A stretch of 64,000 nt of DNA, from the NCBI GenBank assembly GCA_002394365.1, contig DGTQ01000017.1:188-64187 (forward strand), in the 5' to 3' direction. Shown here one piece after another: positions 22,562 to 57,815 of this stretch. Source of the DNA: Prevotellaceae bacterium UBA4332. Lineage in GTDB: Bacteria > Bacteroidota > Bacteroidia > Bacteroidales > Bacteroidaceae. A model generated the notes under the pieces. It saw only the letters and a program-made list of their open reading frames with translations, was not told the origin of the DNA and ran no database searches. Each line of letters opens with the position of its first letter. Within the stretch, counting starts at the first letter, position 1. Both the position numbers and the translations under genes were made by a program.

Positions 22562-22815
22562 ACCACTGATTTCTTGGATTAATTCGGATTTCTATTTCTC
22601 GCCAAGCCGAGATGATGAGGGTTGCACCCTTGAGGCTTTTTCGATTATTCTCTTTTGCGCAAGCAAGCTTGCCCTAAACGAATATCTTCAAACCCTCGCC
22701 GACTATCGCCTGCTCATCATCTCTACGACCTCCGAGCTCTGCTCGCCTGAGCACCTACGGAGCGCAAGAAAGAGCCAAGACGCTCCTTCGGAGCTTACGC
22801 AAAGTGACCATGCGG
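22562..22815 (+). repeat. Structured interspersed element family E, copy E1 (core 22609-22723), with nested REP-like insertion
   Basis: TTCTCGCCAAG left flank; GAGATGATGAG/CTCATCATCTC closing stem; central GCAAGC-AA-GCTTGC; right flank AGAGCCAAGACGCTCCTTCGGAGCTTACGC. Confidence 0.8.
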
Positions 22816-22959
22816 TACAACGACTTTTTATATCAAGCGTCAGCCCTTAGCGTATCAGTCGCAGACTGCGCCTTTCTTGCGCTCCGTAGGTGCTCAGGCG
22901 TTTCTGCTCCCCGATAACGGGGAGACCGAGAGGGGTGTAAAGACTATTGACAAGCTCGG

Positions 22960-23108
22960 AGGTCCCTTCGCGTAACTAAGAATAACTGGTGCAAACAGTA
23001 GGGATGTAGGTTTGACATTAGCTGAAAGCTTGCTTTCAGGCGAATGGATGAAGCTACAGACCGTTGCTCTCGAAGAGAGTTGTTCTTAGTGTCTTTGCGA
23101 GAAAAAAA
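22960..23108 (-). repeat. Family E, diverged copy E5 (core 22975-23090)
   Basis: GCGTA-ACTAAGAATAACT...AGTTGTTCTTAGT-GTCTTTGCGAGAAAA; central CTGAAAGC-TT-GCTTTCAG. Confidence 0.65.
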
Positions 23109-23244
23109 TGTAAGACACAGGAATTTGCAGGTGAGCCCTTTTTTTTGTAACTTTGCCTCTTGAGAGTCAAGTTACTTTCACTCGGCATAAAAAATAAATA
23201 AATTTATTTTGTTCTGCGCTCGTTTATTCGTAACTTTGCACTCC

Positions 23245-23565
23245 ATGAAGGTCATACACATATCACACCTCCCGCTGATGAAAAACTACTATGCCATAAA
23301 CCTCTTCGGCATAGTATTCTCTCGTGAGCCCCTCTCCGAGGAGGAGAAACGCCACGAATACATCCACACCCTGCAACAAAGGGAGATGTTCTTCATATTC
23401 TTTTATATATGGTACGCGATAGAATGGCTCGTGAAACTTGCAAAATACCGCAATCGCTATCTTGCCTACCGCAACCTGTCATTTGAAAAAGAGGCATACC
23501 GCCACCAGACGGATGCCTCATATCCCAAGTTACGCAAACACTTTGCGTGGAAGAACTATCTATAA
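23245..23565 (+). CDS. Small Bacteroidetes protein with HExxH zinc-metallopeptidase-like motif
   Basis: AINLFGIVF, RHEYIHTLQQREM, YIWYAIEW, AYRNLSFEKEAY motifs; start reassigned to ATG 23245 just downstream of TAACTTTG. Confidence 0.75.
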   Translation: MKVIHISHLPLMKNYYAINLFGIVFSREPLSEEEKRHEYIHTLQQREMFFIFFYIWYAIEWLVKLAKYRNRYLAYRNLSFEKEAYRHQTDASYPKLRKHFAWKNYL

Positions 23566-23584
23566 CCTCTTTTTAGGTCTTCAG

Positions 23585-23765
23585 GTATCAGGTCGCTGCG
23601 CTCTCAGGTTTTAAGGAGGAGTTAGAAGAAGTCAGAAGGAGTTAAAGGGAGTTAGAAGACATTACAATTAGCAGGCAGAAAGTCAAAGCCATGTGTCCTC
23701 TATCTCCCTCTATCTACTTCTAACTCCTTAATCCTTATAACACCTTATAACCTCAAACCTTACAA
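23585..23765 (-). repeat. Interspersed repeat family B; homologous copy at about 36425-36585(+)
   Basis: Shared GGATTAAGGAGTTAGAAGTAGATAGAGG...GTAATGTCTTCT...CCTGAGAGCG(C/A)AGCGAC. Confidence 0.75.
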
Positions 23766-23775
23766 CCTCACAACC

Positions 23776-25050: not shown

Positions 25051-25133
25051 TTATTTATTCTTTTCCCTCTACTTTATACCTTATACTTTATACCTTATAC
25101 CTTATACTTTATACTTTATAAAATAAAACCGCC

Positions 25134-27320: not shown

Positions 27321-27410
27321 TGTCTTATAATGTATTAAAAGTTAAAAATCATGATTTTGTCTGCAAAGGTAAGAAAAAAAGTTGATATTTCGGTAAGGCT
27401 CGCGGAAAAA

Positions 27411-28856: not shown

Positions 28857-28893
28857 AACTATTAATTATGAACTGTGAACTATGAACTGTGAA

Positions 28894-29601: not shown

Positions 29602-29641
29602 TGTTCTTCCTTTTTTATATTTTATTATCTGATTACCCTTA

Positions 29642-29833
29642 TTACTTCGATATTCCGATTACTCACACTATTCTGAGTTCCCCCTCCTTTCGGAGGGGTT
29701 AGGGGAGGCTATTAGAAGAGGTTTTTCTCCTTTCTTATTACTCCGATATTCCGATTACTCACACTATTCTGAGTTCCCCCTCCTTTCGGAGGGGTTAGGG
29801 GAGGCTATTAGAGAAGGTTTTTCACCTCCTTAA
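29642..29833. repeat. 96-bp tandem duplication covering the birA 3' end and a family-P hairpin
   Basis: TTACT(T/C)CGATATTCCGATTACTCACACTATTCTGAGTTCCCCCTCCTTTCGGAGGGGTTAGGGGAGGCTATTAGA at 29642 and 29738. Confidence 0.9.
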
Positions 29834-30536: not shown

Positions 30537-30545
30537 AGTTACCAG

Positions 30546-31394: not shown

Positions 31395-31398
31395 GTGC

Positions 31399-31514
31399 AA
31401 AGTTACTAAAACGAGAGCAAAGCACAAAAGAAATTTATTTATTTTTGTTTTGCCGAGTGCAGATAACTTATTTAAAGTTACTAAAACGAGAGCAAAGCAC
31501 AAAAGAAATTTATT
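31399..31514 (-). repeat. 41-bp direct repeat (31399-31439, 31474-31514), part of a promoter-carrying repeat also present at 23168-23242(+)
   Basis: AAAGTTACTAAAACGAGAGCAAAGCACAAAAGAAATTTATT twice; shared CACTCGGCA...AAAATAAATAAATTT...GTAACTTTGCAC. Confidence 0.8.
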
Positions 31515-31594: not shown

Positions 31595-31599
31595 CAACA

Positions 31600-36099: not shown

Positions 36100-36317
36100 T
36101 ACCACGGATTATTCGGATTTTCACGGATAATCCACTTTATTATATTTTTCTCGCCAAGGAGAAGGACAACCTCTTCGAGGATTTAAGTCCTTGTCAGTAG
36201 TGCCTGCATGTGAGCAAGCTCCTCTGTAGTCACTTCCCCCAAGTCCTTTTGCTGTTCCAGCCTTTGTCCTCCTCTACGCAAAGAGCCAAGGCGCACCTAC
36301 GGTGCTACGCAAGGAGG
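36100..36317 (+). repeat. Family E, copy E2 (core 36159-36274)
   Basis: CACGGATTA-type triplet, TTCTCGCCAAG, GAGAAGGACAA/TTGTCCTCCTC stem, central GAGC-AA-GCTC, TACGCAAAGAGCCAAG. Confidence 0.8.
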
Positions 36318-36601
36318 CTGGCGCATGAAAAAAAGAAAGAGTTATGAGGTTCTTGCGCTCCAGTAGGTGCTCAGTCGCAAAGCGGAGCTTGCTCTAGCAA
36401 GCCAACAAGTTGGAGCGATGAGGTCATGAGGTTATGAGGTGTTATATGGATTAAGGAGTTAGAAGTAGATAGAGGTAGATAGAGGACAAATGTTCCAGTT
36501 CTCTGACTGTTAATCGTAATGTCTTCTCACTCCCTCTCACTCCCCCTAAAGCCTGAGAGCGAAGCGACTTTAAGACCTGACACCAAACTTCACCTTAAAA
36601 T

Positions 36602-36812
36602 CCGCATGGTCTCTTTGCGTAAGCTCCGAAGGAGCGTCTTGGCTCTTTGCGTAGAGATGAAAGACTGCTGTTAAGCAGTGCAGGGATTAGCTTTTGTGGG
36701 CACTGAGAACTGGTTCTCAAGTGAACATGAAAGGTAATAACTGCTTACCTCGTATAGAGGGCTTCATCTCGGCTTGGCGAGAAAAAAGAAAAATCCGAGC
36801 TATCGGTGGTAA
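36602..36812 (-). repeat. Family E, copy E3 (core 36654-36770)
   Basis: About 90% identical to E4 over ~145 bp; GAGATGAA/TTCATCTC stem; central TGAGAAC-TG-GTTCTCA. Confidence 0.85.
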
Positions 36813-40200: not shown

Positions 40201-43200
40201 ACGACTGCTGTTGTCGTACTCTAACTGCGTGACGTGGAAGAGTGAGGTATTGGTAGTTTCGAACCAATATAGAGGTTGGAAAATACCTTGATTGTAGGAA
40301 CCCGTACCACCCGTAGATTTCTGTGCCATACCAAGACCCACGATATTCAGGAAGTCCCACTTCGCGGGATGCAACCTGTTACGACCATCATTACGCAACA
40401 TTAGAGAATAGTCTGGCTCATTGTCATGGTCAAGATCGATGGTGGTAACTGTATATTTATAATTACTGCCAATGGCCACGTTATTTCCCGTATATTGATG
40501 GACATTCCCCACAAGTACGACAGCGTAGTCATGAACCGAATTGTCTGTGGGTTTATAAAGTCCATTAGCATTGGTAACTGCTTCACTGATTGAAGTAAAG
40601 ACTCTCTGTTGTTCGCCAGCGATATTATAATTGGTATTGTTTGTGTACTTTTGTCCGCCGCCTACATTAGAAACATCGTAGGCTTCAGTCATCTTGGTAT
40701 TGTATACCACATCAGGATAGGCATCAGCAACATATGCCGCCTTAGCCCAGTAAGGCTCAATGGTTATTGCCGTCACACCTTCCGGCACGTCCCAGTATGC
40801 ACCCTGATTGAACACCCTCTTGCTGGTGCTGTAGAGGTCTTTGTTGGTACACTGGCGGTCAGCAAAGTTATATGCAGGTGCATCGTCACCAGTACTATAA
40901 GTACCAGGCGTACCACCAGTGATGCTGACAATCTTCCATCCCGTTACCACACGATTGCCTGTATAGTTCTTTGTGCCCACATCGTTATAGTAAGGCAGCT
41001 GCACCTTATAGTAGTTGAAGTTGAAGTGGTCGGGGTCCTTGTCGGTGATGTTGAGCGTCAGCGAAGGATAGACAATCTCCGCCCCAGTAGGATGTTCGAA
41101 CTGCGCTCCGTCGCCCATCCGTATGGTAACGGCAAGCGTACCCATATTGCCGCCCTTGTTGCGCTCAGTATATGCAGGCGCATTCTCTGCATCGATGTTA
41201 ACTACTGAGGGATAGTAGCCCGGCTTGGCAAGAACAGGGTAGGGAGTAGAAGAGCCAATCTGTGAGGGCAGCAGTACCCACTTCGCCATCTCTTCCTTGT
41301 CGGAATAGTCACCCGTTGCCCACCAGGCTGCAAGTTCACGGTGGCTGTTCTGCAGATGACGGAAGAACTCGAAACGCTGCAGGAAACGTGTCTCGGCACC
41401 GAGGGCACAGTTATATTTCTTGTTTATGGCTGTATTCTGAATGTAGGCAGACTCGAGACGGAAGTAGTTGAAATTGCTGACACCCGTATTGTCGCCCACA
41501 TTAGTGATAATATAACCGTGATATATAGGAGCTATCGAATCGCCGCTCACCTCACCGTAGAACATGCAGTTCATCACCATGGTCTTGAGGTTTCGGGCGG
41601 TTGTGACAACATTATTGTAACCCACTATACCACCAACATGAGTACCTCCGGAGACATTGGCGTAGCTGAAGCAGTTGATGACGCGCGCCGAGCCGTCGAG
41701 CAGTCCCACGAGTCCGCCCACATAGTTGGAGCCGCTCACCGTGCTGCTGCATGAGGTGATGTGCGTATATCCGCTGTTGTCAATCCTCACCGTGCTGTTT
41801 GTGGCGAGTATGCCGCAGTTGTATATGCGTGTGTCACCCCTTGCCTCGTTGCAGATGGCACCAACGTTGGTGCCTCCGCTGATGCTTACGTTGTCGAGCA
41901 TCAGGTTTTTAATACTTGCGCCGTCAGCGTATGCCACGAACGGAGTACTTAAGCCGCTGAACGTATGGTACTGTCCGTCAATCACGCCAGTGAACGGTGC
42001 GGAGCTCGTTCCGAGCGAGGTAAAGCCAGATTCAAACGTAAAGTCCTCTGCAAGGAGGTAGTGACCGTTCATGTCGGTCATCTCTGACGAACTGTGTATT
42101 TCCAATGGCGCAGGGACAATCTCAAGCCACAGTGTCTGTACATTTGTGCCTTGGTCGCCAGCTGTTGCAGCTTCTGCTTGCTCGGCAAGTGACGTAAACG
42201 GCGTAATACCGCTGAACGCCACCACCTTGGTATGGTCAAAGCGAGGCATGAGGCGCATGTTGCCGTTGGCATCGCCCACTACCATGAAGGTGGCATTGGT
42301 GATGTTGAGCGTAGTCTGGTCGTAGCCTGTAGCAGTCTGCTTGGTGTTGAGGTTCTGCAGCGTCACTGCGCTTGAAGTGCCAGCCCATGTTCCAGCGGTA
42401 AGTGCCGGTGACGAAGTGTTGGCTGTGAAGTAACGCTTGGTATTATACTTACTCTGTATCTGCACATTATAAGGGTCGAAGCCGTTCTTGCCGGCATCAT
42501 AATAGTCTTGCTCGGTTTCGTTCTTACTCTTCGCTTCTGCCTGAGCACCCGACTCGCCTGCATAGCGGTAGCCCATCTCACGGTCGATGTCGAAGTATGG
42601 TCTCAGGTACCATTGCATATCTTCATCAGCCTCCTCAATACTGGCTGGTGCCGCGGCAGCCTCAACGATAGAGCCTGAGGTCTTGGCATATTTACCGCCC
42701 TGCATCAGCAAGAAGGATGAAGGCTGTGTGGCATCAGCCGTTGCTGCTCCTGTATAGGTGCTGGTGTAGCGTGGCTTCACGGTGTAGGTAACGTAGAAGT
42801 CGGTCTTCACGCTCTTATCCTGAACGGGTGATGTTATGTGGAGATATGGTATATCAGCGAGCGATGTTGAATTATGAGTCGTCCTTCTTCCATTATCCAC
42901 CCATTTGTTTTTTTCGTTAAGTTCATATATAACAATATCAGGATCGCTGACCCTATACTTGTGGTAGCCCGTATATTTCTCAGCTTTTGGGTACCACTGG
43001 TATTCCGCTACCATTGGACTGTTAAATTTGCTCAGTTCTTCTGTGTTTACAGCTGTCAAAGCCGCATCTGTGTACATTGGCACACGCATGACCTCCCATC
43101 CGTGTTGGTCAAGCAGGATGACCTGCGGAGCCAGTGACACTTCCTCAAAGGTGAACTGACCTGAACCCATCGAGATGGTCTGATACCAGTGCGTCTCTTC

Positions 43201-45696: not shown

Positions 45697-45719
45697 CTAT
45701 ATTTTCTTAATTATATACG

Positions 45720-45782
45720 ACCCCACCCCTAACCCTCCCAAAGGGAGGGGGTCTCCCTCTTGGGGAGATTTAGAGGGGGTCA
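45720..45782. repeat. GC-rich palindromic family P (CCCCT...AGGGG); copies also 183-210, 601-715, 22908-22925, 29677-29709, 29773-29805, 31168-31200, 37107-37137
   Basis: CCCTCCCAAAGGGAGGG and TCCCC(C)TTGGGGA hairpins followed by TTAGAGGGGG. Confidence 0.8.
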
Positions 45783-45789
45783 TCTTTTA

Positions 45790-48700
45790 TTACTTTACGA
45801 ACAGCTTGCTGCTGTAGTCGCCTGCCACGGTGCGCACTGCATATACCAAGCCGGAAGGCACGTGGATGGTGACGCTGCTGTTTCGCTTCAGGTCGAATGC
45901 CTTGACGAGAGCGCCGCCCACTCCATATACGAGTACCACACGTGGCTCATCAATGGTTGACTTAGCCGTAATGGTGCCTACGCCTGAGGTGAAGGTAATC
46001 TTGCCGTCGGCATCATCCTCCGCATCACCCTTAGGCGTGATGTTCGGCTTATCGTCCTGCTCAGGTGTCACATCCGGCTTTTCCTCAGCCTCGGAGAATA
46101 TGATGTTCATAGAGTTCTGACCACCAGTCCTTACGAAGTAAGCACGGAACGGCAGGAGTTGTGTTGCATCGCCTTCGGCAGGCACCTTCACATACTTGCT
46201 GCCGTCAGACTTCATTACGTAGATGTCAGAACCAGCAGCGATATCTTCATTCAGATAGTTAGGTTTGAAGGTGTAGGTGTAGGTGTAGTTGCCCTGCGTG
46301 CTGCTCTGCGTCACGCCTGTCATGTCGGCATCACTCGCATTGATGGTAGCACCCATGACAGAAGCGAAGGTGACAACCTGACGCTCGAAGCCTGAAGGCA
46401 GCTTAGGAGCCTTCCACTCGCCGCTGAGGTCAAACTCATAGAACTCCTTGCCAGGGAAGCCTATAATATAAGGTGTAGCTCCAAGCTGCTGTGGATAGCC
46501 TTCGTATGTGACATCTATATCCTTGTAATACTTGTTCTGTCCCTCACCATCCAGTTTATCAAGGTGCTGATGCAGATAATCCCAGAGGAAGCTGTTGATG
46601 TAATGCTTATTATCAAAGCCGTCATCACTGGCATCTCCCTTGGCGAGGCTGCTGAAGGTAGCCTCCATGGTGGATGACTTGTCAGTACTCTTAGCTATGG
46701 CCGTGTATTTGCGCAACCAGTATTCATGACCTACCCTGCCCTTTTCATTGCCGGTATAGAAGTGGGTCAGCTCACCCTTCTGCTGGGTAGTTACCATATC
46801 CACGGTGAATGGCAGGCTTATTGACTCCCATCCAGTGTTCAGTCCCGCGTAGGTATCAGGTATGCGCTGATGCCACATACGTGAAGAACCATCGAAGGTA
46901 TATCCTATTGGTGCATAGAAGTCATTGCAGTCAACGAGGAAGTGGTCGTAGGTTGCCTTATAAACACCTTCTGCATTCCTCTGTACCCAGTGAGCCATTA
47001 CCTGTGACTCGTCCTTTGGTGCCACGGTGCCGTATTTGCCATCGGTCTCAGCGTAGCGCGTCTCCTCCAACGCAAGAGATACGGCGTGTCCAGTCTTGCC
47101 TGCTACAGTTGCCTCATCACCAGTTTCTGGTGCCTCGGTGTATGCAAGCAGGTTCTTCGTCAGACCGAAGTTCTTGAAGTTGGTAAGTGCCGTCTCGGCA
47201 TCAAGCAGCGGTGCGAAGAAATTAGCGTTAGGACTGTCGTTGTTGTTAACGTATGCCTTGGCTTCGCCAGTAGAGCCGTCGAACACATCGTTATAGCCTG
47301 TGAAGTCTATAGCCGTCATGCCGTTGTGAACCAAGGTATTCTCGTCGCCGTTCTTATGCTTAGCAAAGACAGCGTACGGGTTGAAGAACGCCTTGCTCAT
47401 CACGCTGCTACGGAAGTAAGCCGGAGCACGGAGCACACGGTTACCTGTCAAGCCTGTCTCGATGTAGTCGCCGTCCTTAACTAATGGTGACGGTACATCC
47501 TGATGCTCTGCACCAACCACGTAGCCGTAGTTCAGCGCCTGTCCGAAGAAGATGTAATCATCTGGGTAGAGAGGTACATATTTGCCTTCTGTTCTATTCA
47601 GACGTACATCGTCTTCCTCTGGTATCTCACCATCGGCATAGATGAAGTCAACGTTTCCATATCTGCTGTTGACGTAGGCAGTGTCGGTGATTGCCGTCTG
47701 TCCTCCCCTGTTAAGGTTGTAACGCTTTTGCAGGTAGAAGCGGTTGAGGTTGTAAGCCACCTCACCGTTGTAGAACTGCGTAGCAGTAGCAGCAACACGT
47801 GAACCACCTGGGGTGCCTGCTGCCCCTGCAGAGAGGTAGTAAGAGTTTCTCAACTGACTTTGGTTGTCAGGGCTACTGATAATCGGGTTAGTTATCTCCA
47901 CACCAGTAGTATCCTTAACCCAGCAGTTCTCTGCCATGCCATCGCCGCTGTTGGCTATGCCACCAGTGGTGAACGCACCCATTGCACCGAGGTTATAGAC
48001 ATTGCCGCAGAGCTTGTCGAACAGTGAGCCTGTAAGTCCGCTCACGTAGTGGCCGTCACCATGCACGTTGCCTCCGAAGCACGTCTCCTCTCCGCTGCCT
48101 ATTGGCATCCACGGCGTAGAGCCTACAGCGAGGTTGGTGCGCAGGATGAAGTCGAGGTCGTCGGCTCCTCTCACGGTTGAGCTGTTGAGCAGCTTGTGGC
48201 CCTTGAACTTGTGTCCCGCAGTGGTTATTGAGTCACCGTCAACGGTTATGCCTGCCGTACTGCTGCTGATGAGGCTCAGGTCATAGAGGTCCTTCAGCAG
48301 GTCGAGACCGTTCTCGCCGTCAGCCGTGTAGTCATTGATATAAACCTTTGGTATGCGCTTGCCAGAAAGGTGAGCGTCCTTATGGTCTATGTAGTAGTGG
48401 TGCGTCTTAGCATCCATCACCTTCTTCAGGTCGTGGTAGTTTGCCACGCTGAACTGCACAGGGTTAGAATATGTCTTGCCTAAGTAGCTCTTAGCGTAGT
48501 AAGCCACATAGTAACCGTCCTGATAGTAGTACATAGGCGTGGAGTTGTTTACATACTCCTGACCGTTTGTGTGATGTTCAGCATTATACTTGCTGTCGAA
48601 TATCTCCCATCCGCCACCGATGAGCTCGTAAGCACCCGGCGTTACTCTTGGCTGGTTCATGCCCACCGTAGTGCCAGGCAGCACGGTGGTTGGTGCCATG

Positions 48701-51700
48701 AGGCGGTCAATGATAGGTGCACCGCTCTCAAAGTCTAAGTGAATGTTGACGATGTGCATCTCGTTGACAGGTGTCACGTCGCCATTATCATCACTCTCGT
48801 TATAGGTGTACTGGTAGATAACGGTGATTACCTTATCCTTGGAGAGGTCCCTGATGTCACTCTCACGGCTAACGTAGAGCGTGGTGGTCTCCGTAGGCTC
48901 GTTGCCCTTGATTACAAAGTCCTTCTGGTCGTTTGTCAAATTGCTATAGTCATCATGGTTTATAACCCATCCGGCAATTACATCACTGCTAGGCCCACTT
49001 GTGGCTTCGCTGCCTATCACGCCGGAGCCATTCTTCCTGTTGGTTACTGAGTGAGTGCCGGTATAACCTGTATGACAGTAGTAGTAGGTTACAGCAGCAG
49101 AGGTACTGTTGCTAACCGTTACCTTAGACACCTTAGCCTGATCCTCAGACGGGAGTGCAAGATAGGTACTTGTCGGGATTATCTGTCCCTTGGTATATAC
49201 CATGCTGCCGAGACTGACGGGGTCATCACTCGTCACGATGTAGATGTCTTCACTTCCCACCATGTTGGCAGGCACTACTATCGGTGTGTAGTTAGCCTTC
49301 TCGTTGGTAAGTGCCTCATACTGTAAGCGTGTAAGCTGTGTATCTGTCGTTATGTTTGATAATGCCGGATCTACATAAGAAGCATTAAGTGGGTGTTCTG
49401 CGTCGCCCTTGTATATAGCCACATACTCCACATTCTGCTCCTGGTTATATGGAGCACCATAGGCGGACTTGCCTGGGTATGTCTTATCTATGAGCACGTC
49501 GAAGGCATCATAGTTGAACCTAAATTCGTTCTTGTCACGGTCGTCAGAGGTAAGCGAAGCCCATCCCTCAAGCGCGCTGTACTTTTCACTACTGCTGTAG
49601 CTCTTGCCGCCATAGAGTCCCTCAGAGGAACATATATATGCATCGGTAAATGAGTTGCCTATCTCTGTAGCCATAGCACCAAACTCACTCTTCAGGACAT
49701 CGATGCTGTCATTGGTGAACAGGTCGCCATATACCAGATATGTCTCGTCATTAAGCCTCAGCGTGCTTATACACATCTGGGCAGCCGCAAACTTAGCATG
49801 TGCTGATGGAGCCTGAGTTGCGAGAGCATCATATTCAGTCTTCGGAATAGCCGTACCCTTGCTGACGCTCTTGCTTACATCGTTATATGTATAGGTAACA
49901 GCCTCCTTTGCCACGTATGCAGGCTCTACTACAGCCTGTCCGTCGGGTTTTTCTGCTATCTTATTATATTCGGTCACCACGTCAGATGTTATAATCTCAC
50001 CCACGCTATAGTTACGCTGACCATATACACCGCCAACAGTGCTATAAGTTGGACCTGGAACATAATTTGCCTGAACAGTCTCCGGCTTAATGTATGTCAA
50101 GGAGTCAATCTTATCGCCTCCCGTCTTAGATGAATACCATCTGCTCCATGCCGGCGGTGTATCCATCTTGAAGTCGAGCACGTAGCCTGTATTGTGGCTG
50201 ATGTTGTTAGACAGGTGAACGTCTTCGTTTCCGCTGTCATCATCCAGCCTTACCTCGCCTGTATTTATGTTAACATAAGTAGTGTCAACGAAGAGAGCCT
50301 GCTCGTCTGCCGGCAACTGACTCCAGTCCCAGTAGGTTATTACGTCGTTGAGCTTATACGTTACGCTGTTATTGCTAACCTTTACTTCCTCGTTACTGCC
50401 GAGAGGCTCTCCGCTCTTGTTATAGTAAGCATACTTGTTAGGCTTTACGTCAAGCAGCTGCAGCTTGCCGTGTGAGCCTGCCGTGATGGTGAGCGGTATG
50501 TGCTTTGACCTGCTGTAAGCCGTTGGCGCACCCGTGTAGGCAGAGATTACCTGGTCATAGATGTATATTGAGCCCTTGACATACCAGTAGTGAGCCTCAG
50601 AGAAGTCCGCCTTAGTATGGTCATACTCAAGGTTGTTAGGATAACAGTCGTCGATAATGGTTTTCGCCTTACCGTGTATGAAATTACCTGATGTCTGGAT
50701 ATACTCAAGTTCGGACTCGTCATACCTATACATCTTATATGTACGCAAGCCTCCGTCAGTGTCGCCTGGTTTTGGCCTGTTAAAATCAGACAGTCTCACC
50801 CTCTTGTAGTCCACATCATAACGCTTTCCGTGCTCGTTCTTGGCATACACGTAGCCACCGCCAATGGCATCAGCCTTGGCGTTGATAAGGTCGAGCTCCA
50901 CCACACCAGTGATGTAGCCATACTCCTTGCCACTCTTTGTCACCGCGCCTGTAGGCTCGTTAACCAGTTCGAGGAACACGCCAGAGGCGAGTGCCACCTG
51001 GTTATGACACGTAGCAGTATTACGCTTACGGCTGTTTGGGTTGTCTGCCTTCCAGTCGTGGTAAGTGGTTTTGCCGTCGGCATCTCCAGAGTCTGTCTCA
51101 CGAGTGTCGGTCATCAGCACGTCACTGGTGAGGTTGCCCAGATAGTTCACCACGCTGTATATGCCGAAGTAGTTGCCGTGCTCCTTGTTGAGTTCATCCG
51201 TCTCGCCTGCTGGTGACACTACTTTCTTCAGTGAGAGCTCACCCACACGGTTGATGGTGTAGTTGGTATTGTCCTGCACCTCCGTCACACGGTCTCGTGC
51301 TCCCTGGAGCACCATACGGCTTCCGAACACGCCCACGAGGTCTGCACGCTGCAGGGTGTTGAGCAGTCTGCCTGAATAGATAGAGCAGACACCGTCCTCT
51401 GTCCAGTATGTACTGTTCTGATAGTCTGAATACAGTTCCTTATATTCATCCTCATATATTTGCTGACCTTCATTATATCCCCTGTAGGTCACACCATCTA
51501 TGGTTCGGGAAGGTACGTTCTGCCTACATGTATAGCGCAGGCGGAAGTAAGCACGCTCACGGTCGGTAAGGTCGTTATCATATTGTTCCTTAGTGACTGT
51601 GGATGTCAGGTTATAATAGTCGGTGCCGTAGTTGGAGATATGCAGCTCGCGGTAGCCATCAACCAGTGAGAGGTTGCCGCCGCCGTACAGACCGCCAGTG

Positions 51701-54700
51701 TGCTCGGTGCCTATGGTGATGAGGTCGCGGCGATAAACGTCGCGCAGGGATGCCGTCACGTTGCCGAACACGGTCTTGGTGTTGGCATACACCTTATCAG
51801 AGCCGTCAGCCACGTTGCCGCCTCCGAATACGGCGTTGTGGATAATGATACCCTTGTCGTCGAGGGCATTCCACTTAGCACCGTCGGTAGCATCGTTCTT
51901 GCCCTTGAGCTTGTTCAGGTCCTCCAGAGGCACATATTGATACTGTGTATAGGTATTACCACCGATAGTAACTTTCTGACCTGCCTTTACCTGAGCCTTA
52001 GCCTCTACCACCACCTTACAGTCTTCGGTCCATTTATCATCTGTCTTAGTGCCGTCCTCAGTGTAATAATAGTGGTTAGGTGATGGCCTGTAATCAGCAT
52101 CTTCACATTTCTCACCCTTTCCATACACATAGCCGAGGTCGCCGCCGCCGAATACGTTGCCGTAGCCCTCAGTGTAGTTGGTCGCCGTGCCTACCTCGCC
52201 GCCATATATGTAAGCTTCGGTCTGTCCGAAGACGTAGCCGTCGGTGTAGAGCGTACCTACACGACCGAGGTTGTCGTAGCCCTTGCCGCCTGCAAACACG
52301 TCGCGCAGCACGTGACCGTTATACATTTCTATGTGGGTCTTGCCGAGCTTGAGGTTGCTTCTTAGGGTGCGCTCACTGTTCTGGTAGCCGCCAACCGTTA
52401 CGTCGCCACGGCCTATGGCAGCAATCTCGCCGCCACCGAAGAGACTGTTACGGATTTTGCCGTTCCACATCTTTACATTAGTCTTGTCAACGCTACTATT
52501 GTCGATGTAACCACCGCCAAATACATTGCCACTGCCATAAAGGCGATTAGCACCTACGTGGTCTGTCCAAGTCTCGTCGTGCAACTTCTCCTGATACCAG
52601 CCATGAACTTCAGCATCATTGTTAGGATCATAGGCAGGATTACGATAAATATCAACCTCGTAAGCAGGAACTTTCTCTATGCCTGCAGGCGGAGTTGTGG
52701 GTTTATCCTCTAAATACACATAGCCTATGTAGCCGTTGTTGAGCGTCACGTTGCTGGTGCCATACACGGCACCGCCCTCGCCACCGCCATAGACGTTACG
52801 CTGTATGGCTGGCACGCCAACAAGGTAGCCATAGCCCGTTGGCAGGGTTGCCTGATCCTTGCGGATGCCTATGATGACATGGGTCTCGCCGAGGATGTCA
52901 CCCTCGGTTGTGGCATCAATGCCACCGTTATGGTGACCCACGCTGCCCTTCCAGCCGCCGCCATAGACATTACGCACGGTACCACCCTCTATGTATGCCG
53001 TAGCAGAGGCTATGAAGCCGCCGCCGATATTGAGGGAGTCCTTGACGGAACCTGTGGTGCCAGCGGCATAGAGGTCTTTCTTCACCGTGCCGCCGAGCAG
53101 GTCAATGTATGTGGTGCCATAGACGTTGCCACTGTTGGCTACATCATTGTAGCCCAGTCCACCGCCATAGCAGTAGCCGCCCACATAGGCGCCCTGCTTG
53201 ATGTGTACGTTGGTGTTGTATTTCTCTGGTCGTGAAGACTCGCGCTCATGCAGCTTGTTGCCGAGGGCGAGGTTGTCGGTGAGCCCGTTGTCGGTATAGC
53301 CTTCTGGCAAGTCAACATAGAGATTGGTCTTGGTGGTCTTCCACTTTGTCACGGTCTCCTTGTTGATAACCATACCCATCTCTCCACCGCCGTAAGCCTC
53401 ATAGACATTGGCACCGCTTTCGAGGTTCACCTCGGTATATTGTGACCATGTGTCTCTACCATAGCCTGCGCCATAGACGGTAGCCTGATAGCCTTTCTCC
53501 TTGTTAGACCATACATTGCTGCGGATGTTCACCTTGCCGTAGAAGGTGCGGCGCGCGTTGTTGTTGCCGCCATAGACGGCGTGGCGCACGATGGCATCGT
53601 TGCTGCGGTAGTCAACGTTCGCCTCGAATGCATCGCAAGGTCGGTCGTTGGCACTACGTGTTCCGTAAGCGCCGCCGAAGATACTGTTTGTAACAATGGT
53701 AGAGCCATCGGGCACGTTGACGAGCGTGCGACGGGTAATGCCCTCATGGTAGCTTGCGCCATAGACAGCATCCACCTCGCCAGCCATGAGGTCGATAACG
53801 GCTGTGGCCAACTTAGGATCTGCATCTGAAGCACTCCTCGTTATGCCCATGCCTAAACCGTTGAAGGAACCTGCGCCAAACACCTTGAGGCTTCTGAGCT
53901 TATCATAAGCGTCGGGTATGTCGATAAGCACATAGCTGCGGTCTTGCATCATGTCGCCAATGTGCGCCTTAGCGGCACTATCAGAACTGCCCTCACTGCC
54001 CAAGCCTGCTCCATACACGGCATCTACCCTACTGTCGTTGTTACGCTCTGGGCGAATGTGCACGAAAGCATTGTTGAGGTAAGGCTTATTGACTTCCTTG
54101 GTCTCGCTGCTGTTAAGGAGAAGGGCAAGCACGGTTGACTTATAACCGCCCGCACCGTCGGAGATTCTCTCGTAGTTGTAGCCGCCGTATGCTCCGCCGA
54201 ATATCTCGCCTACGTGTCCCTGCAGATACTCCACGTATGATGATGCCGTAGCCGCAGAACCGCTGTCGAACATCTTGGAGCGCAAGTCTGAGCGCACCCT
54301 TTCCTTGAAGTCGGCACTGCCCTGGATGTTGCCGCCGAGGTCGTTGCCGCCATATACATCATCTATAATATATGGGAAGCCGCCACTGCCTATGATGGTC
54401 TCTGCGTGTCCGAGTATGTCGGCATTTGCAGCACCTCCAAAGGTGGAGTTGACGCGACCGTTGCCAAGAGTAACGTGGGTGTCGCCAGCCACAAGTCCTT
54501 CGAAGCCGCCGCCATAAAGGTACTCAGCTTCAGTCATACCACCTGTTGCGGCACCCTTCACGTTGCCCACGAGGTTGACGTGGGTGCTGTAGTTTGGGTT
54601 ATAGGAGTAGCTGCCTGCCACGTTCTTGCCTATGGCACCCTTCTCACCGCCACCATAGACGTTGAAGTGGTAGCCGTTCCTGACATTGATGGTAGTGGAA

Positions 54701-57012
54701 CCCCATACCTCGGAGTTCTCACCATAGCCGCCGCCGAAGATAGCCATAGAGGTGAAAAGAAGCTCGTCACGCTGTATCGCTGGGTCAACGCCTGATGCTC
54801 CCGTGCCGAACACCTCGGTTGTATCTACCGTGCTCTGGTTGAGGTTAATAAGGATATCGCCGTTGACATAGCCGCTGTTGTAGCATCCGCCATAGACGTT
54901 GGCACCCATCAGACGGCGCGCCTCGCCATCCTTGCCGTTGGTGTTCCAATCAAGACCGTTCTTAGCGTCATTAAGCTTACCAGGCTTGAGTTTCAAGCCC
55001 TCGAAATCCATGCGAATCTTAGGATTGCCTGCCGTGGGAGCCTCGGTAACGCCGCCCATATGCTCGGCATTGTATGTTGTGGCAGCTACGTAGGCATCGT
55101 TACATCCGCCTACAAACTTCTTATATATAATAATGGAATTAAGCTCATCCATGGTGAAGGTGCCCGGAGCCGTCATGCTGCCCACATTGCCACCAAGGAA
55201 GAATGAGCCTACATAGGTAGAGAAAGACTCATAGTCGACAGGGTCGCCCTTAGCCTTGGAGTCGAACACCACCTGAGGCACCAGCGGCATGGCAGCACCC
55301 TGCATATATGCAGCGAACTGGTCGGCATCAAGGAGGTTGATGGAGCTGAAAGGCGAGCTATCACCAGAGAGGTCGATGCGCTTCATGGTGCGAAGCACGC
55401 CCTCCACGGCACCCGTGACGGAATTGCCCGCTTCATCCTTGTCAGCCTCGTTATAGCGTATCATGTTGCGGCCGTTATTGCCCAGGAACGCATTTTCGAC
55501 TATAACGCGGGAGCCTATCTTCAGCTCCACTATGGGGTTAGCCTTGGTGGTCTTGAGCGACGCGCTGTTGCCTCCGCAATATACTGAACCCTTGATGATG
55601 GTAGGCTTATTATGGTCAGGCGAGTAGAGACGCAGGGACACCTGCTCGGCATTAGGACGGAAGTCGTTGAGCGCCTGAACGGAGGTCTTGCCCGCAGGGA
55701 TGGTGTAATAGAAGTCGCCGTAGGTCTCGTTGTCAGCAAGGGCTGGGTTGTCGGTATAGGCGTAGGAGCCATTGCCACCGCCATACACGTCGCCATTCAC
55801 GCTGGCATAGATACCTATGGCACTGCCGCCATAGACCCTGCCAGTGATGTCGTTGCCGCCATACACATTATTTATATCGCCCCCGCGCACGAGCACGCGA
55901 GCAGAAAGTCCCTTCGGGAACTTATAGCCCGGAAGATTATCCGCTGGGGTATAGACACCGTTGACGGTTGGCATGACATCTGCCATGCGGCAACCGCCAT
56001 AGAGGTTATCGACCTTGATGTTGGAAGCGGCAGGTATCTCGAGCAGTATGCCCGTGGAGGCGGTCATGTTGCCTCGGTTGCCTCCGCTGTAGAGGTTGCG
56101 TATGCGACCCCGCCTGAGGTTCCATGTAGGGACGATGTCCATGTCAGCCTTGTTGTTGCCGCCAAAGAAGCGGTCGAACTGGTACTCGGACAGACTCGGG
56201 TCTGAGTATGCGAGGTTTATGCCCATGTTGTCGTGCAGACGCGCATCGGTGAGCAGTTCGTTGCCTCCTGCGTCTGTCACGCTCGTTACCACGTTGCTGA
56301 TGTTGTCGAAGTTGATGACGGTCTTCTCAGTCACCGTCACGTTATTGCCGCCGCCGTAGCCGTATGCCACGGTGCCGCCGAGCACCTCGAGGTAAGCCTT
56401 AGCCACCTCGGGCTTATTGACATCCACAAGGGTGGTGTCGCCGATGGTCACATCATAGAGTTCGTTAGCCTTCTTAGCAGAATAGGCATAGTCGCCGTTG
56501 CCGCCGCCGTAGAGCTGACCCATAAACACCTTGGGGGCATCAAGAGGAGCGATGGTGTCACCCTCGACAATCTGGGTCTTGGTGGATATGCGCACATAGG
56601 TATTCCACGTGCTGTCAACTTTGTTTTCAGACGCCTGTGTGAGCACGCTGGGCACCGTAGCCTCTTCAGAGAGAGCCGACGGCGAACCTATGTTACCTGA
56701 AATATCGTTTCCACCATAAACTTTGTCGATGACGATATAGGAGGAGGCGTTCTCGCCGTCGATATTGACGAGGGCACCGCCCGTGATGTCAGCCTGGCGC
56801 GCTCCGCCAAACACCTGATGAATGCTGCCACCATAGACATTGACGGCGGTGTTGCCGCCTGTATCACCGTGATTGCCTCCACCATATACACTGCCGCCGA
56901 TGCTGATAGCAGGCTGCGCACTGACTCTGGTTGGCGCAACCAACATCAACACTATTGCTAAAATACTTAATGTCAGCTTGACATAATTATGTCTATTCAA
57001 TGTTCCTTTCAT
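45790..57012 (-). CDS. Giant secreted repeat protein (3740 aa): N-terminal (V/I/F)YGGG beta-solenoid, GLUG-like region, T9SS-type C-terminal domain
   Basis: Signal peptide ending VSA; about 35-40 xxV(Y/F)GGG repeats over the first ~1800 aa; WMPIG...FGGNVHGDGHYVSGL; C-terminus VLVYGVGGALVK...IHVPSGLVYAV...KLFVK. Confidence 0.82.
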   Translation of the reverse strand: MKGTLNRHNYVKLTLSILAIVLMLVAPTRVSAQPAISIGGSVYGGGNHGDTGGNTAVNVYGGSIHQVFGGARQADITGGALVNIDGENASSYIVIDKVYGGNDISGNIGSPSALSEEATVPSVLTQASENKVDSTWNTYVRISTKTQIVEGDTIAPLDAPKVFMGQLYGGGNGDYAYSAKKANELYDVTIGDTTLVDVNKPEVAKAYLEVLGGTVAYGYGGGNNVTVTEKTVINFDNISNVVTSVTDAGGNELLTDARLHDNMGINLAYSDPSLSEYQFDRFFGGNNKADMDIVPTWNLRRGRIRNLYSGGNRGNMTASTGILLEIPAASNIKVDNLYGGCRMADVMPTVNGVYTPADNLPGYKFPKGLSARVLVRGGDINNVYGGNDITGRVYGGSAIGIYASVNGDVYGGGNGSYAYTDNPALADNETYGDFYYTIPAGKTSVQALNDFRPNAEQVSLRLYSPDHNKPTIIKGSVYCGGNSASLKTTKANPIVELKIGSRVIVENAFLGNNGRNMIRYNEADKDEAGNSVTGAVEGVLRTMKRIDLSGDSSPFSSINLLDADQFAAYMQGAAMPLVPQVVFDSKAKGDPVDYESFSTYVGSFFLGGNVGSMTAPGTFTMDELNSIIIYKKFVGGCNDAYVAATTYNAEHMGGVTEAPTAGNPKIRMDFEGLKLKPGKLNDAKNGLDWNTNGKDGEARRLMGANVYGGCYNSGYVNGDILINLNQSTVDTTEVFGTGASGVDPAIQRDELLFTSMAIFGGGYGENSEVWGSTTINVRNGYHFNVYGGGEKGAIGKNVAGSYSYNPNYSTHVNLVGNVKGAATGGMTEAEYLYGGGFEGLVAGDTHVTLGNGRVNSTFGGAANADILGHAETIIGSGGFPYIIDDVYGGNDLGGNIQGSADFKERVRSDLRSKMFDSGSAATASSYVEYLQGHVGEIFGGAYGGYNYERISDGAGGYKSTVLALLLNSSETKEVNKPYLNNAFVHIRPERNNDSRVDAVYGAGLGSEGSSDSAAKAHIGDMMQDRSYVLIDIPDAYDKLRSLKVFGAGSFNGLGMGITRSASDADPKLATAVIDLMAGEVDAVYGASYHEGITRRTLVNVPDGSTIVTNSIFGGAYGTRSANDRPCDAFEANVDYRSNDAIVRHAVYGGNNNARRTFYGKVNIRSNVWSNKEKGYQATVYGAGYGRDTWSQYTEVNLESGANVYEAYGGGEMGMVINKETVTKWKTTKTNLYVDLPEGYTDNGLTDNLALGNKLHERESSRPEKYNTNVHIKQGAYVGGYCYGGGLGYNDVANSGNVYGTTYIDLLGGTVKKDLYAAGTTGSVKDSLNIGGGFIASATAYIEGGTVRNVYGGGWKGSVGHHNGGIDATTEGDILGETHVIIGIRKDQATLPTGYGYLVGVPAIQRNVYGGGEGGAVYGTSNVTLNNGYIGYVYLEDKPTTPPAGIEKVPAYEVDIYRNPAYDPNNDAEVHGWYQEKLHDETWTDHVGANRLYGSGNVFGGGYIDNSSVDKTNVKMWNGKIRNSLFGGGEIAAIGRGDVTVGGYQNSERTLRSNLKLGKTHIEMYNGHVLRDVFAGGKGYDNLGRVGTLYTDGYVFGQTEAYIYGGEVGTATNYTEGYGNVFGGGDLGYVYGKGEKCEDADYRPSPNHYYYTEDGTKTDDKWTEDCKVVVEAKAQVKAGQKVTIGGNTYTQYQYVPLEDLNKLKGKNDATDGAKWNALDDKGIIIHNAVFGGGNVADGSDKVYANTKTVFGNVTASLRDVYRRDLITIGTEHTGGLYGGGNLSLVDGYRELHISNYGTDYYNLTSTVTKEQYDNDLTDRERAYFRLRYTCRQNVPSRTIDGVTYRGYNEGQQIYEDEYKELYSDYQNSTYWTEDGVCSIYSGRLLNTLQRADLVGVFGSRMVLQGARDRVTEVQDNTNYTINRVGELSLKKVVSPAGETDELNKEHGNYFGIYSVVNYLGNLTSDVLMTDTRETDSGDADGKTTYHDWKADNPNSRKRNTATCHNQVALASGVFLELVNEPTGAVTKSGKEYGYITGVVELDLINAKADAIGGGYVYAKNEHGKRYDVDYKRVRLSDFNRPKPGDTDGGLRTYKMYRYDESELEYIQTSGNFIHGKAKTIIDDCYPNNLEYDHTKADFSEAHYWYVKGSIYIYDQVISAYTGAPTAYSRSKHIPLTITAGSHGKLQLLDVKPNKYAYYNKSGEPLGSNEEVKVSNNSVTYKLNDVITYWDWSQLPADEQALFVDTTYVNINTGEVRLDDDSGNEDVHLSNNISHNTGYVLDFKMDTPPAWSRWYSSKTGGDKIDSLTYIKPETVQANYVPGPTYSTVGGVYGQRNYSVGEIITSDVVTEYNKIAEKPDGQAVVEPAYVAKEAVTYTYNDVSKSVSKGTAIPKTEYDALATQAPSAHAKFAAAQMCISTLRLNDETYLVYGDLFTNDSIDVLKSEFGAMATEIGNSFTDAYICSSEGLYGGKSYSSSEKYSALEGWASLTSDDRDKNEFRFNYDAFDVLIDKTYPGKSAYGAPYNQEQNVEYVAIYKGDAEHPLNASYVDPALSNITTDTQLTRLQYEALTNEKANYTPIVVPANMVGSEDIYIVTSDDPVSLGSMVYTKGQIIPTSTYLALPSEDQAKVSKVTVSNSTSAAVTYYYCHTGYTGTHSVTNRKNGSGVIGSEATSGPSSDVIAGWVINHDDYSNLTNDQKDFVIKGNEPTETTTLYVSRESDIRDLSKDKVITVIYQYTYNESDDNGDVTPVNEMHIVNIHLDFESGAPIIDRLMAPTTVLPGTTVGMNQPRVTPGAYELIGGGWEIFDSKYNAEHHTNGQEYVNNSTPMYYYQDGYYVAYYAKSYLGKTYSNPVQFSVANYHDLKKVMDAKTHHYYIDHKDAHLSGKRIPKVYINDYTADGENGLDLLKDLYDLSLISSSTAGITVDGDSITTAGHKFKGHKLLNSSTVRGADDLDFILRTNLAVGSTPWMPIGSGEETCFGGNVHGDGHYVSGLTGSLFDKLCGNVYNLGAMGAFTTGGIANSGDGMAENCWVKDTTGVEITNPIISSPDNQSQLRNSYYLSAGAAGTPGGSRVAATATQFYNGEVAYNLNRFYLQKRYNLNRGGQTAITDTAYVNSRYGNVDFIYADGEIPEEDDVRLNRTEGKYVPLYPDDYIFFGQALNYGYVVGAEHQDVPSPLVKDGDYIETGLTGNRVLRAPAYFRSSVMSKAFFNPYAVFAKHKNGDENTLVHNGMTAIDFTGYNDVFDGSTGEAKAYVNNNDSPNANFFAPLLDAETALTNFKNFGLTKNLLAYTEAPETGDEATVAGKTGHAVSLALEETRYAETDGKYGTVAPKDESQVMAHWVQRNAEGVYKATYDHFLVDCNDFYAPIGYTFDGSSRMWHQRIPDTYAGLNTGWESISLPFTVDMVTTQQKGELTHFYTGNEKGRVGHEYWLRKYTAIAKSTDKSSTMEATFSSLAKGDASDDGFDNKHYINSFLWDYLHQHLDKLDGEGQNKYYKDIDVTYEGYPQQLGATPYIIGFPGKEFYEFDLSGEWKAPKLPSGFERQVVTFASVMGATINASDADMTGVTQSSTQGNYTYTYTFKPNYLNEDIAAGSDIYVMKSDGSKYVKVPAEGDATQLLPFRAYFVRTGGQNSMNIIFSEAEEKPDVTPEQDDKPNITPKGDAEDDADGKITFTSGVGTITAKSTIDEPRVVLVYGVGGALVKAFDLKRNSSVTIHVPSGLVYAVRTVAGDYSSKLFVK

Positions 57013-57047
57013 GATTTATAATTGTACGCGCGTAAGGTGCTACGGTG

Positions 57048-57079
57048 CAAAGTTACAACTTTTTAACACAATCTCCAAA
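57048..57079 (-). promoter_or_regulatory. Sigma-A promoter for the giant-protein pair
   Basis: GTTTGGAGATT...TAACTTTG with 20-bp spacer; same extended -33 as 22382-22413. Confidence 0.8.
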
Positions 57080-57194
57080 CTTTTTGCATATTATTTTCTC
57101 TGTTTTGCACACAAAAGCGATTAAATGCATGTTTTTAAGCGTTTTGCAGAAATGACAATCCCTTGTTTTTGCATGCTCCTTAACAGATTTTATG

Positions 57195-57415
57195 ACCACG
57201 GATTACTCTCTAACGGATTATTTCCAAACCACGGATTACTCGGATAGACACAGATAATTAGGAGATTTTGGAAAAGATTTTTAACGGATTTTTGAGGAAT
57301 GAAATGACGAAATGAAGAAACGTCGTCCCCTTATTTGTGGACAAGATTTTTTGAAGGATTTTAGACAGGATTTTAACCACGGATTATGCGGATTTGCACG
57401 GATAATTTTAGACTG
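57195..57415 (+). repeat. Degenerate CACGGATTA 9-mer clusters upstream of the giant gene
   Basis: CCACGGATTACTC, CCACGGATTACTCGGATAGACACAGATAA, CCACGGATTATGCGGATTTGCACGGATAA. Confidence 0.75.
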
Positions 57416-57597
57416 GATTTTTAACAGAGAAAATCTTATCTGAAAATCTTGAGAAAATCGGAAAGAAAATAAACAGAAGGCTCTGCTTGATTTCGCCTAC
57501 GGCTCAAAAATCTAAAGAAAATCTAAGAAAAAATCAATTAAACATTAAGGATTAAGGAGTGAGCACACGCAGCTAACGAAGATTAGAGCCAAGCCGA

Positions 57598-57815
57598 CCT
57601 TGGCTCCTTGCGTAGAGATGAAAGACTGCCGTCAGGCAGTGCAGGGATTGACTTTTGTGGGCACTGAGAACTGGTTCTCAAGTGAACATGAAAGGCAATA
57701 ACTGCTTACCTCGTAGAGGGCTTCATCTCGGCTTGGCGAGAAAACTTGAAACTCGGCTTGGCGAGAAAAACATAAAAAAACGGACTATCCGTGAAAATCC
57801 GAATAATCCGTGGTA
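57598..57815 (-). repeat. Family E, copy E4 (core 57615-57729)
   Basis: Near-identical to E3; local duplication of CTCGGCTTGGCGAGAAAA; 57786-57815 is the exact reverse complement of 36100-36129. Confidence 0.85.

Follow-up and report, generated by a model that had tools for sequence, protein, structure and literature searches.

A repeat family of rumen Prevotella, resembling miniature inverted-repeat transposable elements, with a strand-specific four-way junction

Five repeat units in a 64-kb window

The 64,000-nucleotide stretch analyzed here (the window), from contig DGTQ01000017.1 of Prevotellaceae bacterium UBA4332, carries genes for housekeeping enzymes, three pectate-lyase/CBM77 proteins, and two giant open reading frames (ORFs). 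Between these genes lie exactly five units of ∼116 bases, each bounded by the boxes TTCTCGCMAAG and TACG, that probably represent the structured module of a noncoding, nonautonomous mobile repeat family of rumen Prevotella resembling MITEs (miniature inverted-repeat transposable elements). An initial annotation had singled out five copies with these flanks, and both observations were borne out. Inspection of the sequence and a covariance model (R2), with which every position of the window was scored, yielded the same five units and no others (85 to 155 bits; 18 to 28 bits antisense). Exact copies of the left box, TTCTCGCMAAG, number six, and nine are counted when up to one mismatch is allowed, compared with 1.9 expected by chance, and TACG follows 116 to 119 nucleotides (nt) beyond it.

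Apart from one solitary copy, the five units are arranged in two convergent pairs, which the initial annotation did not mention. Unit E1 (22596 to 22727, minus strand; subfamily A1; R2 score, 103 bits on the minus strand), which includes the boxes TTCTCGCCAAG and TACG and folds into a four-way junction, is the partner of E2 (22971 to 23103, plus strand; subfamily B1; closing stem ACTAAGAAYAACT, box TTCTCGCAAAG; 109 bits on the plus strand). Similarly, E3 (36148 to 36278, minus strand; subfamily A5; closing stem GAGAAGGACAA; 85 bits) is paired with E4 (36650 to 36783, plus strand; subfamily A3; fold z = −6.05; 155 bits). E5 (57611 to 57742, plus strand; subfamily A3; 151 bits) is solitary, in the region upstream of the gene encoding a protein of 3,740 amino acids (aa). 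In both pairs, the folding strands point outward from the center, and the units enclose 250 to 380 bp of other short repeat modules, without ORFs. The predicted fold of both the E1-E2 block (z = −7.9) and the E3-E4 block (z = −9.6) combines two cloverleaves with a terminal stem and a long central stem. Copy numbers were estimated from module depth in DNA run X1, where the host genome is covered ∼240-fold: E1-type modules are present in ∼12 copies per genome equivalent, E2-type modules in ∼25 to 45 (depth, ∼25 to 45 times that of the genome), and E4/E5-type modules in ∼9 (E4 depth, ∼9 times), and E3 is essentially single-copy (∼1.1 to 1.7 times).

The strand that folds reads 5′-..CTTTGCG-TA-[unit]-GG-CTTKGCGAGAAAAA-3′ (CGTA-unit-CTTGGCGAGAAAAA), which is the reverse complement of the orientation adopted initially. 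On this strand, a leader with a mini hairpin is followed by the box YCTTTGCG-TA, the four-way junction, GG-CTTKGCGAGAAAAA, and often by ATCCG words. The leader (36602 to 36649, plus strand; CCGCATGG-TCTCTTTGCGTA-[mini hairpin GCTCC-GAA-GGAGC]-TCTTGGCTCTTTG) lies ahead of most units, with counterparts at 22769 to 22815 (minus), 36279 to 36327 (minus), and 57586 to 57610 (plus). Its mini hairpin covaries (GCTCC/GGAGC, GCACC/GGTGC, GCGCC/GGCGC, and GTGCT/AGCAC), and the compensatory pair GCTCC-TTC-GGAGC versus GCACC-TAC-GGTGC, reported at the outset for the right flank, is indeed present. A small ORF in the leader, starting with the ATG in CCGCATGG, was considered and rejected: neither the ATG nor the point within the variable unit at which the frame ends is conserved. 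CGGATT/ATCCG words with a spacing of ∼10 nt are located outside the TTCTCGCCAAG box at 36101 to 36134 and also at 22560 to 22593 (degenerate), 36792 to 36812, and 57781 to 57814. The earlier statement that such a triplet precedes E1 to E4 holds only in part, given that the words before E1 are degenerate and that none is present beside E2. Finally, a truncated remnant of another unit, consisting of the 3′ end only (CTTGAAACTCGGCTTGGCGAGAA; 57745 to 57767, plus strand), directly follows E5.

Copies, subfamilies, and range of the family

Including copies on other rumen Prevotella contigs, 31 distinct units were collected, in seven sequence-divergent subfamilies: A1 to A5, with the closing stems GAGATGA.. 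or GAGAAGG.., and B1 and B2, with ACTAAGRA... The length between the boxes is 111 to 119 nt across the subfamilies, and variants differ by indels of 1 or 2 nt, not by multiples of 3, showing that the units are noncoding. Pattern scans gave loci L002 and L016 to L020, and look-ups of flanking proteins gave L031 to L051. In a collection of species-representative genomes, 1 of 15 loci matching a 20-base gapped pattern was true (L002, from a metagenome-assembled genome of an uncultured Prevotella of red deer), and the metagenome pattern scan gave 5 true loci. Both patterns were strict, so the true range of the family is underestimated. DNA nearly identical to the window is present in bovine and sheep gut metagenomes, and the host clade is rumen Prevotella.

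On viral contigs, the pattern matched by chance only (L021 to L030 lack the closing stem, and L052 is a 20-mer inside a GC-rich ORF); a scan with a terminal-repeat pattern gave 0 matches, and BLAST searches of plasmids and phages gave none. The Rfam covariance models produced 0 matches in the window at the gathering threshold and, at an E-value threshold, none above 17 bits on the units, and scanning for tRNA and transfer-messenger RNA genes detected none in the window. Literature searches for the motifs and for descriptions of MITEs or repetitive extragenic palindromes (REPs) in Prevotella retrieved no account of this family. The absence of a matching Rfam family agrees with the initial suggestion of an undescribed system.

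A four-way junction conserved through sequence turnover

The same four-way junction was obtained in 28 of the 31 minimum free energy folds on the folding strand. This junction, formed by every unit of the window, consists of a closing stem (P1, 8 to 11 bp) followed by a short hairpin (Pa, 11 to 16 nt), a long central hairpin (Pb, 58 to 66 nt), and a short hairpin before the 3′ arm (Pc, 9 to 15 nt), with hardly any unpaired bases between the helices. The palindromes with a 2-nt center that had been placed near the midpoint are present but constitute the apical stem of the long arm Pb, with a 4-nt loop. In five subfamilies, the apex of Pb is G(CUUG)C on the folding strand. The small loops are often GNA triloops, which are unusually stable in DNA, or GNRA tetraloops, the latter (GCAA and GAAA) found in subfamily A2.

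The interiors of the units, first regarded as unrelated, can be aligned by structure. The apex AGCAAGCT is common to three of the four window types, and a covariance model built from A3 alone (R1) detects all but one of the six other subfamilies (A1, A2, A4, A5, and B1) at E ≤ 1e-8, with both B2 copies missed. Model R2 detects the B2 copies, which were excluded from its building, at 74 to 80 bits. In the model-guided alignments, 92.6 to 93.2% of the cells pair, compared with 66 to 68% in shuffled controls and 38 to 45% with slid partners; double compensatory changes occur at 39 or 40 of the 43 base pairs, and the covariation score is 0.62 to 0.64 versus 0.20. Given the fit of these alignments to the structure and the grouping of the sequences in clades, units were also aligned within each subfamily by plain MAFFT. 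In the unfitted alignments, 11% of the paired columns vary compared with 33% of the unpaired ones, and clean compensatory double changes are found, for example, in A3, where C-G is replaced by U-A in Pa and A-U by G-C in Pb. The previously cited substitution of ACTGCT-GTTA-AGCAGT by ACTGCC-GTCA-GGCAGT is real as well and distinguishes the copy at 36650 to 36783 from that at 57611 to 57742. When RNAalifold was applied to a plain MAFFT alignment of all subfamilies, only 8 pairs were recovered because the A and B types are offset by 2 nt. The fold rather than the sequence is kept by compensatory change across the seven subfamilies. Variation of the kind generated by diversity-generating retroelements, with A-to-N differences between copies, was also considered and rejected, the subfamilies differing at all base types.

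One strand is favored

The folding strand is better than its complement by 3 to 17 kcal/mol in all 16 copies tested with RNA parameters and by 5 to 9 kcal/mol in the four window types with DNA parameters. Among non-Watson-Crick cells at paired columns, G·U is far more frequent than A·C (38 versus 8), and purine·purine than pyrimidine·pyrimidine (56 versus 5). The unpaired bases on this strand are A259, G240, T150, and C73, and the loops are 69% purine. Such asymmetry is not expected from the neutral decay of a DNA palindrome; therefore, the fold is strand-specific and probably used as a single-stranded nucleic acid, either RNA or single-stranded DNA (ssDNA). The original proposal that selection acts on a folded single-stranded nucleic acid is thereby upheld, with strong covariation and one strand clearly favored.

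The same observations bear on the possibility that the folds have no function, being the residue of palindromic junk DNA conserved by common descent. Few, closely related subfamilies can inflate shuffle-based statistics, but four helices and their dimensions are kept in seven subfamilies of little sequence identity, double changes affect nearly all of the pairs, pairing falls to ∼40% in the slid controls, and neutral decay does not produce the observed excess of purine·purine over pyrimidine·pyrimidine cells. This explanation is already disfavored and appears very improbable.

Some of the strand signals are typical of RNA, namely, the excess of G·U over A·C, the purine-rich, C-poor loops, the G-C-closed CUUG apex, and the GNRA loops of A2. 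The units might accordingly be genes or cis-elements for a structured RNA family, carried by or domesticated from mobile DNA, with the fold maintained by selection because the RNA benefits the host, for example, as a transcript stabilizer or insulator, a processing site, or a small trans-acting RNA. In agreement with such a role, the single-copy E3 keeps its fold and is conserved across strains, and metatranscriptome contigs cover the units. However, in paired RNA and DNA runs of one sample, the RNA depth per DNA copy is ∼10-fold below that of the neighboring Cys/Met gene, contig depth being a poor measure. Furthermore, the orientation of the units to flanking genes is inconsistent over three loci; no Bacteroidetes-type promoter (TAnnTTTG) or terminator was recognized around the units by eye, without a formal scan; Rfam provides no match; and strains without the E1/E2 element exist. 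An abundant noncoding RNA was rejected as such owing to the low RNA/DNA depth ratios. The expression data argue against an abundant small RNA and are compatible with both RNA and ssDNA. A host-serving RNA family is a possible but rather unlikely explanation.

A composite element with terminal inverted repeats and a precise empty site

E1 and E2 belong to a composite MITE-like element of 611 bp (22527 to 23137), in which the left terminal inverted repeat, GGATT words, E1, paired central stem modules, E2, and the right terminal inverted repeat follow in this order. The composite is bounded by the imperfect inverted repeats GGGGTCACCAGTAAAACCCTGTGT and GGGCTCACCTGCAAATTCCTGTGT (terminal repeat sequence, GGSTCACCWGYAAA). 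The left repeat (GGGGGTCACCAGTAAAACCCTGTGT; 22527 to 22551, plus strand) is a 24-bp imperfect one, agreeing at 19 of 24 positions (22528 to 22551) with the right repeat (reverse complement GGGCTCACCTGCAAATTCCTGTGT; 23113 to 23138, minus strand; aligned part, 23115 to 23138). Contigs from other contexts diverge at 23137. On either side of the element is CTTTTT, a putative 6-bp target-site duplication (22521 to 22526 and 23138 to 23143), of which the empty-site contigs carry a single copy.

The comparison of empty and filled sites called for at the outset revealed a precise empty site in contigs of three metagenomes (DNA runs X4, X3, and X2): position 22520 is joined to 23138, with 617 bp skipped and CTTTTT fitting either side. 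Hence, the composite represents an insertion or a precise excision with CTTTTT duplication. The same composite, with the same inverted repeats, was found at an unrelated site (L017, 10546 to 11319), directly after a terminator hairpin, flanked by C plus T-runs, and ∼1.8 kb downstream of a 2,380-aa ORF; it was also identified in L016, in a form that is degenerate including the ends. The size range is 611 to 774 bp. Part of the central stem is optional: the module at 22728 to 22768, which pairs with 22876 to 22963, is missing from some other copies (joint 22727>22769 in DNA and RNA contigs), and for its partner, which contains CTTGCGCTCCGTAGGTGCTCAGG and a small GC hairpin, joints 22875>22964/22966 were likewise observed in DNA and RNA contigs.

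The empty site, the terminal inverted repeats, and the occurrence of the same composite elsewhere identify the E1/E2 block as a MITE in the operational sense: it is small, noncoding, and multicopy, has inverted repeats and a duplication with empty sites, and is found between differing flanks. Together with strain differences in unit content, these features support the earlier suspicion of a nonautonomous element system. The combination of inverted repeats and target duplication points to a DDE-type cut-and-paste enzyme, not to HUH. An invertible promoter was tried as an alternative and rejected, the DNA contigs containing no strand-switch joints.

Exchange of units between strains

Orthologous loci differ in the units that they carry. 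At locus B, which extends from an ABC-ATPase gene to the gene for a 2,808-aa protein, the window and L034 to L036 carry E3 and E4, L031 to L033 lack E3 and have two tandem A3 units instead, and in L037 E3 is joined by an A2 unit, behind which 27 nt from the 3′ end of an A1 unit remain. At locus C, upstream of the 3,740-aa gene, E5 is kept in all orthologous loci (L039 to L045); a B1 unit and a half-length A1 remnant are added in L039, L040, and L044, and L042 and L043 are shorter. Among the A3 copies, all four combinations of Pa and Pb alleles were found, which indicates recombination or gene conversion. In contigs of run X2, an internally deleted A1-type unit that consists of P1 and a 5-nt loop (GAGATGATGAG-CAACC-CTCATCATCTC; compare window 36660 to 36764) reaches ∼4 times the genome depth. 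Thus, units are swapped, tandemly duplicated, truncated, or internally deleted between strains.

The remnants always retain the end ..CTCGGCTTGGCGAGAAAA and directly follow a full unit (for example, window 57745 to 57767 and L002 4909 to 4945; further remnants are at L037 3481 to 3517 and L039, about 4540 to 4640). Four such remnants with the 3′ end only, the T-runs that serve as targets, and the end of the folding strand in GCGAGAAAAA(A) are reminiscent of short interspersed elements (SINEs), in which case T-rich nicks would be the sites of reverse transcription of a folded RNA with an A-rich tail, and 5′-truncated copies would result. Conversely, no reverse transcriptase is encoded in the window or beside the copies examined on other contigs, the best-defined element has inverted repeats and two inverted half-units and is not a product of target-primed reverse transcription, the remnants could equally derive from nested insertion or recombination, and RNA abundance is low. 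SINE-like spread of the half-units is, therefore, highly unlikely.

BLAST comparisons resolve the intergenic regions that carry the units into mosaics, the numerous short modules of which recur elsewhere between the genes of the window. A dispersed module, CTTGCGCTCC(A)GTAGGTGCTCAGGCG, occurs in both orientations at 2136 to 2167, 8338 to 8369, 22744 to 22772, 22874 to 22900, and 36349 to 36377, and the bins that hold it are at ∼25 to 40 times the genome depth in DNA runs. Short oligomer repeats (GGTTATGAGGT, CACAGTT/GTGAACT, TAATGTTTAA, GTAGATAGAG, and GGATT words) crowd the intergenic stretches 2330 to 2660, 8050 to 8125, 8420 to 8465, 36420 to 36490, and 57190 to 57420, and the bin at 36378 to 36454 reaches ∼90 times the genome depth. 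A segment at 23605 to 23755 is 97% identical to L031 5518 to 5669, in the locus B intergenic region of another strain; its depth of ∼6 times that of the genome marks it as another mobile module. Finally, a lone terminal-repeat motif (GGCTCGCCTGCAAA) at 8127 to 8140, within the intergenic region 8015 to 8929, may be the end of another decayed element.

Gene context

The three pectate-lyase/CBM77 genes are arranged in tandem and, together with the giant ORFs of 2,808 and 3,740 aa, lie within 8929 to 22122 and 37270 to 57012; the 3,740-aa ORF has no Pfam match. The genes that adjoin copies on other contigs are equally ordinary. No transposase, recombinase (including tyrosine recombinases), HUH/Y1 protein, or reverse transcriptase is encoded in the window or adjoining the copies examined on other contigs. 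A gene with a GIY-YIG nuclease domain (L020, 2910 to 3458) is located at a distance of ∼600 bp from an A2-type unit; the proximity was seen only once and is probably due to chance. In L040, an extra gene for a 122-aa 23S_rRNA_IVP protein (Avd-like four-helix bundle; 2020 to 2388) lies between the adh_short and GATase genes and is not present at the orthologous position of the window (∼59315 to 59385).

Discussion

The results reported here describe a new structured, MITE-like repeat family. Two half-units placed head to head, with their leaders paired, and 24-bp terminal inverted repeats make up the element at 22527 to 23137. In the mechanism that is probably at work, the fold would act in cis as a single-stranded nucleic acid, either a transcript or ssDNA from the strand that points outward, toward the tip of the element, and the fold and the CTTKGCG boxes would be recognized by a trans-acting factor encoded elsewhere. 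This factor might be a nuclease, a transposase or its accessory protein, or an enzyme of RNA processing, and spread or persistence would depend on it. Exchange of unit types at one locus could then proceed by recombination or gene conversion between dispersed copies via the shared boxes, and the composites would decay and recombine into the intergenic mosaics. We infer that the fold serves the propagation or persistence of the element and that units are exchanged via the shared boxes.

Several observations weigh against this interpretation of the units as modules of a MITE-like family. A cut-and-paste transposase acting on double-stranded DNA does not explain the strand-specific conservation of an internal fold or the retention of the fold in the single-copy E3. 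A mobilizing enzyme was not identified, there being none in the window or adjoining any copy. Terminal inverted repeats and a target duplication are definable only for the E1/E2 composite, and none was found at E3/E4 or E5. In addition, the covariation alignments were fitted to the model and comprise sequences of few clades, and the metatranscriptome contigs are unstranded and agree with either RNA or ssDNA.

Readings in which the folded unit is itself a substrate take two forms. In one, the units would be sites for a structure-recognizing enzyme acting in the manner of either the HUH Y1 transposases associated with REPs and their doublets (REP/REPIN-RAYT) or the integrase that recognizes integron attC sites, with the convergent pairs as REPIN-like doublets. 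Architecture is kept over sequence here, inverted doublets occur, GNA triloops are frequent, and one strand is favored also with DNA energy parameters. As in REP/REPIN-RAYT systems, the units are dispersed, extragenic, and palindromic, form within-genome populations, and have a tag beside the fold; in the A-type units, cGTAG immediately precedes the fold on its 5′ side and is reminiscent of the GTAG tag described for REPs (PMC3733652). However, REPs are simple hairpins of 20 to 40 nt (PMC3116915, PMC3733652), whereas the unit described here is branched, with four helices in 111 to 119 nt, and the one well-defined element has terminal inverted repeats and a 6-bp duplication, which HUH elements lack. 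Neither a RAYT nor any other Y1/HUH gene, nor a tyrosine recombinase gene, is found in the window or beside copies. The analogy to REPINs and RAYTs drawn in the initial annotation therefore stands for form only, that is, for the inverted doublets and the cGTAG tag on most types.

The comparison with integrons, made at the same time, is not supported. The units resemble attC sites in the recognition of fold over sequence, in strand selectivity, and in size (57 to 141 nt for attC). In contrast to attC, their flanks are GCGTA and CTTKGCGAGAA, without R″ (RYYYAAC) and R′ (GTTRRRY) core sites, and the units fold into a four-way junction instead of a bulged hairpin with extrahelical bases; the convergent pairs, 250 to 380 bp apart and without ORFs, are neither cassettes nor a same-orientation array, and the window encodes no integrase. 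Elements of the IS200/IS605 type, such as palindrome-associated transposable elements (PATEs), have subterminal hairpins but no terminal inverted repeats or target duplication and insert 3′ of a fixed tetranucleotide, unlike the defined element with its inverted repeats and 6-bp duplication. Taken together, a RAYT-like or integrase-like ssDNA site is unlikely. A second, broader form would have the cloverleaf and the CTTKGCG boxes as the substrate of a shape-reading mobility system in Bacteroidota, based on either an ssDNA-acting enzyme distinct from RAYT/TnpA or a pathway mediated by RNA (SINE-like or guide-like), with the interchangeable interiors defining specificity or subfamily identity; this scenario is doubtful.

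Known families of short intergenic repeats differ from the one reported here. Bacterial interspersed mosaic elements (BIMEs) of Escherichia coli, pneumococcal BOX elements (A-B-C modules), Neisseria Correia elements, and enterobacterial repetitive intergenic consensus (ERIC) sequences consist of short modules in variable combinations in intergenic regions. When transcribed, they fold into long hairpins and can affect mRNA processing, and in Correia elements terminal inverted repeats are accompanied by a target duplication. To our knowledge, none of them has been described with a conserved four-way junction the interior of which is replaced while its dimensions are kept, and the host clade and all sequences differ from those of the rumen Prevotella family.

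The nearest described relatives are MITEs of Bacteroidota such as BrickBuilt of Porphyromonas gingivalis. Like BrickBuilt, the family is noncoding and intergenic, combines terminal inverted repeats with subterminal parts and internal repeats in a composite, and has tens of copies, predicted long stem-loops, and many partial or nested copies (PMC4596501). BrickBuilt contains a core of 23-nt minisatellite repeats and no conserved branched fold (PMC4596501), whereas in rumen Prevotella the core consists of two four-way junctions, which compensatory changes have maintained in subfamilies of divergent sequence. The IS5-type terminal repeats of ISPg1/BrickBuilt (GAGACCTTTGCAAAA / GAGACCTTTGCA(AAA)) share TGCAAA and CTTTGC with the window repeats (22528 to 22551 and 23115 to 23138) and the CTTTGCG boxes. 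This resemblance in sequence may hint at the family of the transposase and is offered as a lead.

Small mobile repeats of bacteria are usually simple hairpins or plain inverted-repeat elements. Here, a four-way junction survives complete sequence turnover on one strand only, and, therefore, something must read the fold as RNA or ssDNA. Such a reader, for which an accessory factor of a transposase, a nuclease, and an RNA pathway are candidates, would extend the short list of structure-recognizing systems (attC/IntI, REP/RAYT, and IS200/IS605). For the biology of the host, the family seems to form much of the intergenic DNA in abundant rumen Prevotella, breaks metagenome assemblies at its boundaries, and yields strain-level differences beside large polysaccharide-degrading and giant surface-protein genes.

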